From Escherichia coli (GTDB lineage: Bacteria > Pseudomonadota > Gammaproteobacteria > Enterobacterales > Enterobacteriaceae), in the NCBI RefSeq assembly GCF_003018235.1, contig NZ_CP027437.1: a stretch of DNA of 64,000 bases. One strand, given 5' to 3'. The notes under the pieces are model-generated. The model made no database searches. It was not told the origin of the DNA and was given only the letters and a program-made list of their open reading frames with translations. The position numbers were made by a program, and so were the translations under genes. This document shows positions 36,855-41,790 of the stretch, one piece after another (the stretch's first letter is position 1; the number at the start of each line of letters is the position of its first letter).

Positions 36855-38507
<1,653 letters not shown>

Positions 38508-38579: not shown

Positions 38580-39893
<1,314 letters not shown>

Positions 39894-39913
39894 GTCTGAC
39901 TTTATCTGATTTA

Positions 39914-39943
39914 AAAATGCCAGCCTTCGGGCTGGCATTTTTT
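39914..39943. terminator. Bidirectional intrinsic terminator between eno and ygcG
   Basis: AAAATGCCAGCC-TTCG-GGCTGGCATTTTTT: a GC stem with A-tract and T-tract flanks serving both convergent genes. Confidence 0.65.
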
Positions 39944-39952
39944 ATGGTTGAG

Positions 39953-40825
39953 TTACCAGCGACCGGACGCGCCGCCACCGCCAGAAGAACCGCCCCCGCC
40001 GCTAAATCCGCCGCCACTTGAGCCGCCACCGGAACCGCTGTTGTCTGAATGATAACTTCTACCAGATGCTTTTTTCTGAAGTACACATAAACAGGTAAAG
40101 ACCATAATGGTGGTGAAAGTAAAAAAGAAGAAAAATACAGCAATGGAAAAAGTTTTATCGGAGAACAGGAATAAATCTAAAAGATAGATTGCTGAAATAC
40201 AGACACTGCTTTTACATGCGCGACAAAAATTACTGCCTTGATGAAAAAACCAGAAAGGGAAGAACATCACTGCAAATACCCAAAAAATAGCAAAGTAGTA
40301 ATGATCGCTGGAATACGCTGATTCACTTTCTGAAGGATTAGCCGAATATTGGTGTTGTGAAGTGAGTTGGTTATTTAAAGCGATTATAGCTAACTCTAAT
40401 CCCTTAGCTAATTTTTGTTGTTTAAATGCGGGTATCATGTTGCTACGGATGATATCTCCAGCCAGAGCATCGGTTACCTTTTCTTCCAGCCCATAACCTA
40501 CCTGGATGCGGACAGCACGATCCGACAAGGCAACAATGATCAGTATCCCATCATTGCGTTTGGCATCTCCTAAACGCCAATTGTTAAAAACCCTTGTAGC
40601 ATATTGTTCAATTGTCTCGTCTTTGGTTGTGGGAATAATTAATACAGCAATTTGTACTTGGGTATTATTGAAAATAGATTCTAACTTCCGCGTCAGTTCT
40701 TTCTTTTCTTGTGAGTTTAAGCTACTCGTAAGATCCGTAACTTGTTGCTGTAATGATGGGACAATAGTTGGTTGGGCTGCAACAAAGGAACACACGAATG
40801 TAAACATTAGTATGAAATAGCGCAT
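39953..40825 (-). CDS. ygcG: TPM-domain membrane protein with a Gly/Ser-rich C-terminal tail
   Basis: Track ORF of 313 aa; start placed at [11 protein letters not shown]... (about 290 aa) giving a signal peptide; TPM/phosphatase-like domain, TM segments and a [22 protein letters not shown] tail. Confidence 0.8.
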
Positions 40826-41118
40826 TATAAATTTCTCATTAAATCTGGATAAATAAATTGACGGCGGCATCGGTAATTTGAGATTCGTTATCATTAAAAA
40901 CGAACACAGAAAAAATAAATATAAATTTGGTGAATGTTTTTGACATGATTAAATCCCTTTACTTTATTTATTTCTGACATAATACGTTACTCCCTTTTAT
41001 TATTAACGATCTGTTTCTCATTTTTCTTTAAACCTGCCTGTAACAGAATGTTAATAAGACATGATTGTTGTGGCAGGATCTGCAATAATTAACAATTATC
41101 CACTTCACAGAGAATGCT

Positions 41119-41790
41119 ATGCAGTACCCGATTAACGAGATGTTCCAGACCCTGCAAGGTGAGGGTTACTTTACCGGCGTCCCCGCTATTTTTATTCGTT
41201 TACAGGGATGCCCGGTCGGCTGTGCCTGGTGCGACACCAAACACACATGGGAAAAGCTTGAGGATCGGGAAGTTTCCCTTTTCAGCATTCTGGGTAAAAC
41301 GAAAGAGAGTGATAAGTGGGGAGCAGCAAGCAGTGAAGACTTACTCGCAGTCATCGGTCGTCAGGGATACACCGCGCGTCACGTGGTGATTACGGGTGGT
41401 GAGCCTTGCATTCATGATTTGCTACCACTGACTGATCTGCTCGAAAAGAACGGTTTTAGCTGCCAGATCGAAACCAGTGGTACTCATGAGGTACGCTGCA
41501 CACCGAATACCTGGGTTACCGTATCACCAAAGCTGAACATGCGCGGCGGCTATGAAGTGTTGTCACAGGCACTGGAGCGAGCCAACGAAATCAAGCATCC
41601 AGTGGGACGCGTACGTGATATTGAAGCACTGGATGAACTTTTGGCGACGCTGACCGATGATAAACCGCGAGTCATTGCACTGCAGCCGATTAGCCAAAAG
41701 GATGATGCCACACGATTGTGCATTGAAACCTGCATTGCGCGTAATTGGCGTTTGTCGATGCAAACACATAAATATCTAAATATTGCCTGA
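41119..41790 (+). CDS. queE: 7-carboxy-7-deazaguanine synthase (radical SAM)
   Basis: 223-aa ORF with a CxxxCxxC-type cluster (CPVGCAWC). Confidence 0.92.
   Translation: MQYPINEMFQTLQGEGYFTGVPAIFIRLQGCPVGCAWCDTKHTWEKLEDREVSLFSILGKTKESDKWGAASSEDLLAVIGRQGYTARHVVITGGEPCIHDLLPLTDLLEKNGFSCQIETSGTHEVRCTPNTWVTVSPKLNMRGGYEVLSQALERANEIKHPVGRVRDIEALDELLATLTDDKPRVIALQPISQKDDATRLCIETCIARNWRLSMQTHKYLNIA

Follow-up and report, generated by a model that had tools for sequence, protein, structure and literature searches.

The glycine- and serine-rich C-terminus of YgcG, encoded in a 64,000-nt stretch of Escherichia coli DNA (hereafter the window), is interpreted here, with moderate confidence, as the tail typical of its protein family, i.e. 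a variable, disordered linker followed by a conserved terminal peptide, which probably lies in the cytoplasm and is likely to act as a tethered binding motif. The binding role is read from the pattern of conservation only, as the most likely one. At the DNA level, the tail-coding region is not a slippage or phase-variation tract.

The features of the region are summarized in Table 1. RefSeq calls the same gene ygcG, the region was matched in 5,072 of 5,426 complete E. coli genomes, and the exact 290-aa protein was found in public collections as 'YgcG family protein'. The mechanical longest ORF at ygcG is a 313-aa frame from an ATG at 40894, which differs from the annotated start (MRYF).

Table 1. 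Features of the eno-ygcG-queE region and segments of YgcG (window positions).
Feature	Position	Strand	Description	Basis
pyrG	36870-38507	+		
eno	38595-39893	+		
Perfect 13-bp hairpin	39913..39942	.	AAAAATGCCAGCC/GGCTGGCATTTTT with A- and T-run flanks; between convergent eno and ygcG	Inverted repeat and sequence
ygcG coding sequence including stop	39953..40825	-	290 aa, annotated start MRYF	
Conserved C-terminal 17-residue motif	39956..40006	-	aa 274-290	Position frequencies in 115 relatives
Variable Gly/Ser linker	40007..40039	-	aa 263-273 (11 residues)	Sole weak tandem-repeat signal; all indels seen in E. coli
Basic juxtamembrane segment, modelled disordered	40040..40075	-	aa 251-262	Sequence; pLDDT <50 for aa 252-272; family-wide positive charge
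Membrane region, three predicted helices	40076..40306	-	aa 174-193, 199-220, 226-250	Hydropathy; AlphaFold2, full-length and truncated
TPM domain, predicted periplasmic	40373..40741	-	aa 29-151	Pfam; AlphaFold2 pLDDT 95-98; Foldseek
N-terminal signal peptide (putative)	40769..40825	-	~aa 1-19	Hydrophobic aa 3-23; relatives' consensus begins likewise; cleavage site inferred
queE	41119-41790	+		

YgcG belongs to the TPM family by profile and by fold. The Pfam profile TPM_phosphatase (PF04536) matches the TPM domain with E=3.7e-36 and 124.3 bits (gathering cut-off 22.1) over profile positions 1-123 of 125. Foldseek searches with the TPM fold returned BA41 (5anp; E=4.6e-12, target-normalised TM-score 0.90) and 7tbr (0.89), and further PG0361 (2kw7), TLP18.3 (3pvh; E=2.6e-6) and Psb32 (8c7i; E=2.3e-5); the matches in the PDB are isolated TPM domains only, and the solved structures omit the tail. 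Foldseek matches to serralysin (probability 0.05-0.08) were dismissed as noise. In the NCBIfam scan Psb32 alone was reported for YgcG, below threshold, and the RefSeq name 'YgcG family' had no HMM match there; identity with Psb32 in the sense of the NF047379 equivalog was ruled out (36.3 bits against a cut-off of 160). By architecture and motif, with a predicted signal peptide and a predicted membrane region between TPM domain and tail, YgcG is a member of the tailed YgcG/Psb32-like subgroup.

The minus strand of 39953-40060 comprises the ygcG stop codon (39953-39955) and the last 35 codons. The first-pass annotation had described this end of the gene as encoding a Gly/Ser-rich tail, and the description is correct: the 22-residue string that it quoted is exactly YgcG residues 264-285, and the last 28 residues contain 16 Gly and 8 Ser, a composition far beyond chance (for Gly alone, P ~1e-11 at an assumed background of 7.4%). 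It had also taken the tail to be unusual for a TPM protein, and the relatives contradict this. A total of 1.84 billion cluster representatives were searched with the TPM domain alone (aa 1-161, tail excluded), a query chosen in order to avoid circularity, and 118 of the 150 best relatives end in F-S-G-G-G-G-x-[SF]-G-G-G-G-A-S-G-x-W-COOH; the remaining 32 are mostly short fragments or apparent frameshifted calls. When 115 relatives were anchored at their terminal Trp, G at -8 to -6, S at -4 and W at -1 were each invariant (100%), accompanied by F at -17 (63%), A at -5 (85%) and the G (88%) of A-S-G-x-W, and the C-terminus of YgcG matches this consensus exactly. A locus-finding tool, asked for the most conserved parts of the family alignment, selected the two stretches [SF]GGGG[AS]SGxW and IEVG[YR]GLE[GED].

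Eighty loci, drawn from one-genome-per-species contigs, were then compared; they span Gamma-, Beta-, Alpha- and Deltaproteobacteria, Bacteroidota, Leptospira, Planctomycetota, Armatimonadota and the candidate phyla radiation (CPR). A tailed TPM protein is encoded in 75 of the 80, and of 80 ORFs with the motif at their end, 79 encode TPM proteins. The region that follows the last helix is 22-92 aa long (median 46) in 118 relatives and 39 aa in YgcG, and the composition of the relatives' linker varies (G/F-rich, S/D-rich, or R/G-rich), while the tip stays fixed. The Gly-rich extension itself is already known and annotated for the protein family; two papers mention the tail in passing, as a 'glycine-rich extension' or a 'low-complexity segment' (one of them from 2024, PMC11237479). 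The literature searched for YgcG, and for TPM domain together with LemA, contained nothing about the tail, and searches with the motif strings gave unrelated peptidomics papers only, with no description of the motif itself. A by-product of the present analysis is a clear definition of a position-specific, conserved C-terminal motif inside a 'low-complexity' extension.

The paralogues of E. coli 042 indicate at which level this motif is maintained. The three 042 paralogues and the window YgcG share 15-17 of the last 17 residues and are 29-43% identical elsewhere. Between the window gene and 042 paralogues b and c, for which the rest of the protein is only 30-36% identical to window YgcG, the last 17 codons show nine synonymous and one to two nonsynonymous differences; differences that are mostly synonymous imply constraint on the protein rather than homogenisation of the DNA. 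Judged from these substitutions and from the indels described below, purifying selection on the protein maintains the motif, and only the linker tolerates changes in length. Variants of the tip are rare, and two were observed, both in the middle paralogue: in E. albertii (L008, 2356-3492) the protein ends in ...GGGGASGR, with the terminal Trp lost, and in O157:H7 (L002, 3465-4613) it ends in ...SSVRW, not ...SSGRW.

The tail DNA looks repetitive because the peptide is glycine-rich; the repeat flavour is forced by the peptide. Perfect head-to-tail repeat units were sought with Tandem Repeats Finder and by direct-repeat scans, and none were found in the tail DNA. Tandem Repeats Finder reported one sub-threshold array (40011-40038; period 12, 2.3 copies, 81% matches, score 35), and exact direct repeats in the 84 nt of tail DNA reach 10 nt at most, the copies of the longest being 51 nt apart, i.e. 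not in tandem. Among 5,000 random synonymous re-codings of the tail peptide, which served as the null, the longest repeat was 9.1 +/- 1.6 nt (P(>=observed)=0.35), and the self-identity of the tail DNA at a shift of 12 was likewise unremarkable (P=0.11). Of the near-repetitive codons noted earlier, the weak period-12 array stands, but the repeat content equals that expected from synonymous codons.

The length of the tail among E. coli genomes was taken from rank-spread samples of 40 and 60 rows (at most 60 ranked rows per search), not from a full count. Within the allele class of the window (~4,200 genomes), the sampled full-length matches have exactly the length of the query (1001 or 181 nt), with two exceptions. 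One is a +1 frameshift in strain 22AR0750, an annotated pseudogene, in which A6 became A7 in the KK codons (~40066-40071), outside the Gly tract; the other is a loss of 3 nt in the linker of a ygcG pseudogene remnant that is cut by IS1 (isolate LR4). In the 90% protein cluster (1,681 members), 11 of the 15 members listed have 290 aa, and the rest are partial or frameshifted outside the tail. The sequence of a 315-aa database variant, P0154, diverges at the T-run that encodes FFFFF (~40119-40135). Slip-prone DNA in ygcG appears to be its A/T homopolymer runs and not the Gly tract; these frameshifts could also be sequencing errors.

The 042/O157 allele class (about 783 of 5,426 genomes) has two lengths, which are 12 nt (one GGGS) apart, and the longer form was seen in ~13 of 21 sampled rows. 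The 12-nt GGGS insertion of the O157-type alleles maps to the linker and looks like an imperfect local duplication; substitutions in the linker are carried by K-12 ygcG as well. All indels seen (+12 nt, -3 nt) fall in the 11-residue linker, and none in the last 17 codons. The sampled rows of the 5,072 genomes thus do not display frequent repeat-number polymorphism among close strains. For the claims that the tail varies in length and that orthologues would bear this out, the outcome is divided: lengths are not identical, given the range among the relatives and the GGGS polymorphism, but the variation is discrete, rare and confined to the linker, and the sampled intact genes of the window class have a single length. 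The claim that the tail is prone to replication slippage is not upheld, in view of the lack of a perfect tandem repeat, the codon-null repeat content and the location of the frameshifts at A/T runs elsewhere.

The hydrophobic segments of YgcG by hydropathy are aa 3-23, 176-196, 203-221 and 224-251, and AlphaFold2 (78-sequence alignment) modelled the three helices of the membrane region, which recur in a model of aa 166-290. Directly after the last helix stands KKASGR, and 8 of the 19 residues past the last hydrophobic segment of the 042 allele are K/R (own count from sequence). Charge is asymmetric about the membrane region in 76 relatives: the 17 residues that lead into the first helix have a net charge of -0.93, and the stretch behind the last one has +2.36 (Wilcoxon P=6e-11). 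A crude hydropathy count of helices has a modal value of three, and is odd in 57 and even in 20 of 77 relatives. Hydropathy and charge rules are the basis of the topology, and the charge asymmetry was weighted above this crude count. According to the positive-inside rule, together with three helices, the TPM domain is placed in the periplasm and the tail in the cytoplasm. YgcG, which the first-pass annotation had called periplasmic, would therefore be an inner-membrane protein and not a soluble periplasmic one, and its tail probably lies on the cytoplasmic side, with the membrane between it and the TPM domain in the periplasm.

In the full-length AlphaFold2 model, pLDDT is <50 for aa 252-272 and 70-87 in the last 20 residues (block means 70 and 87). 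Residues 281-289 form a strand in this model, and residues 87 (in a conserved W-x-L-G loop) and 278 take part in isolated bridges. When aa 166-290 were modelled alone, the pLDDT of the tail was 47-52 and the strand was gone. A confident tip that is obtained only with aa 1-165 present implies that the model contains a contact with the TPM domain or the signal peptide; such a contact in cis would be at odds with the predicted topology, in which the membrane separates the tail from the TPM domain.

The slot between eno and queE (39900-41118) is a low-GC variable island (ygcG body 37.8% and ygcG-queE spacer 29%, against 50.9% for the window). No lemA was found immediately upstream of ygcG, where the 293 nt between ygcG and queE hold small yqcG-related ORFs only. 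The window and K-12 have no lemA partner beside ygcG, whereas E. coli 042 and 66 of the 80 related loci carry one. Comparison of four loci (L001, L002, L007 and L008) gave, for the slot of E. coli 042 and E. albertii, lemA and three tailed TPM genes in tandem, in place of yqcG and a single ygcG; in the O157:H7 stretch fetched, three TPM genes were seen and lemA was not shown there. The gene yqcG, a small envelope-stress gene (46 aa in K-12), is split in the window at 40839-40980 (minus strand) into ORFs of 28 aa and 35 aa in different frames, and in the closest genomes RefSeq annotates a 'hypothetical protein' there. Insertion sequences were observed in the slot of two other genomes: in RMDEC465 an IS4 separates eno from the TPM gene (L004, 3102-4448), and in LR4 an IS1 interrupts ygcG (L006, 1103-1800).

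A mosaic junction lies inside the tail-coding DNA (~39900-40034). The 042-type allele has 42% protein identity to the window outside the last 17 residues and 100% nucleotide identity over the terminator region and the last 27 codons; the identical stretch ends at window position 40034 for the 042 type and at 40015 for O157. The conserved tail DNA may serve as the eno-side recombination anchor of the island. The hairpin between eno and ygcG, which was not reported by a simple terminator scan, is near-invariant across E. coli and is, from its sequence and its position, likely a bidirectional terminator.

Beyond E. coli, a widespread module (L009-L087; e.g. L021, 4308-4805, and L037, 4367-4864) comprises lemA, a tailed membrane TPM gene, and a short tail-less TPM gene (TPM-B). 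The TPM-B proteins have ~165 aa, no signal peptide, and a conserved C-terminal HFP..NELPDxPxxL, and were present in 38 of the 80 loci; 27 of these 38 are without a hydrophobic segment, and TPM-B is apparently cytoplasmic. In Bacteroidota, the two TPM genes of the module stand in the opposite order.

For the function of the tail, several explanations were weighed. The reading of the first-pass annotation, a functionless low-complexity tail that is an oddity for its family and whose codon repeats expand and contract by replication slippage, could draw on the differing linker lengths of relatives, on the 12-nt GGGS insertion that separates O157-type from 042-type alleles, and on the weak period-12 signal; however, the last 17 residues are conserved position by position across phyla and paralogues, the repeats are those of the codon null, the length is invariant in the sampled intact genes of the window allele class, and the tail is the norm for the family, so that this reading is largely refuted and very improbable. 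A passive flexible spacer or 'entropic bristle', for which only Gly/Ser composition would count (for solubility or distance from the membrane), is quite unlikely: it would suit the linker, whose length and composition vary freely among relatives and whose surroundings (aa 252-272) are disordered in AlphaFold2, but leaves unexplained the invariant positions (GGG at -8 to -6, S at -4 and the terminal W, besides the frequent A at -5 and F at -17), the constant spacing between motif and C-terminus, and the retention of the motif through 7-9 synonymous changes between paralogues. We give similarly little credence to a membrane-interacting element or a sorting/degradation signal, e.g. a glycine loop at the inner leaflet anchored by F274 and W290, or a C-terminal degron. 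The aromatics conserved at -17 and -1, the F/Y/W residues dotted through the Gly runs of relatives, and the basic residues that precede the tail would fit, yet no known sorting-signal model was matched in Pfam or NCBIfam, and the motif strings had no relevant paper in the literature searched. The DGSGW sequence is the TolB box of colicins, and a likeness of ...GASGxW to it was rejected on account of a different spacing and of the predicted cytoplasmic location of the tail.

Docking of the tip as a beta-strand on a TPM domain, either its own (if the tail were periplasmic) or, in trans, that of TPM-B, has somewhat better prospects and is still unlikely. It is favoured by the tip being confident and strand-like only when aa 1-165 are included, by the isolated bridges in the full-length model, and by the abundance of TPM-B without hydrophobic segment in the loci compared; against it, the membrane separates the tail from its own TPM domain in the predicted topology, the motif is perfectly kept in the E. 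coli loci examined although they are without TPM-B, and 37 of 75 tailed loci show no TPM-B within 3.5 kb. A more specific version, in which the tip is a dedicated TPM-domain-binding peptide on a cytoplasmic leash that adds a beta-strand and, in lemA operons, often docks TPM-B, is speculative and rather unlikely. If it were true, the contact between tip and TPM-B would join two units across the membrane, a LemA/TPM sensor or assembly unit in the periplasm and a TPM unit in the cytoplasm, and would provide a first mechanistic handle on the widespread lemA-TPM modules.

The explanation preferred here remains the linker with a conserved terminal peptide. In this proposal, the signal peptide would export the TPM domain to the periplasm, the three membrane helices and the positive-inside charge would place the tail in the cytoplasm, the Gly/Ser linker would merely give reach, and the 17-residue tip, as a short tethered peptide, would contact a partner specifically and in a strand-like manner. 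The tail is the ordinary and stable end of an E. coli gene that is known but uncharacterised, and it calls for neither a slippage hypothesis nor a check of the assembly. The motif should be regarded as a functional element that is worth mutating in studies of lemA-TPM modules; it should also be kept in alignments, domain models and expression constructs, and not be discarded as low-complexity.

Known systems resemble the YgcG tail to different degrees. With simple-sequence contingency loci, it has in common the repeat flavour of its Gly/Ser codons and a single 12-nt polymorphism; it differs in having no perfect units, codon-null repeats and a stable length within the allele class, and its in-frame units could not switch the gene off. 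The bacterial Psb32-like tailed TPM proteins share with YgcG the signal peptide, the TPM domain, the membrane segment(s) and the Gly-rich C-terminal extension, i.e. the same architecture, whereas the window ygcG stands alone without lemA. For YdjH (2024, PMC11237479), the genomic context is pspA/band-7 rather than lemA. Psb32/TLP18.3, a repair and assembly factor of photosystem II, shares the TPM fold with YgcG, and has, as is predicted for YgcG, the TPM domain on the lumenal/periplasmic side, with a C-terminal membrane helix; unlike YgcG, it has a single membrane helix and no Gly-rich extension. The C-terminal tip of SSB, and the C-terminal linker and conserved peptide of FtsZ, are tethered motifs with known partners. 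Although their sequences and proteins are unrelated to YgcG, and the analogy is one of design only, they may be likened to the YgcG tail in that a variable low-complexity linker is followed by a strict C-terminal motif.
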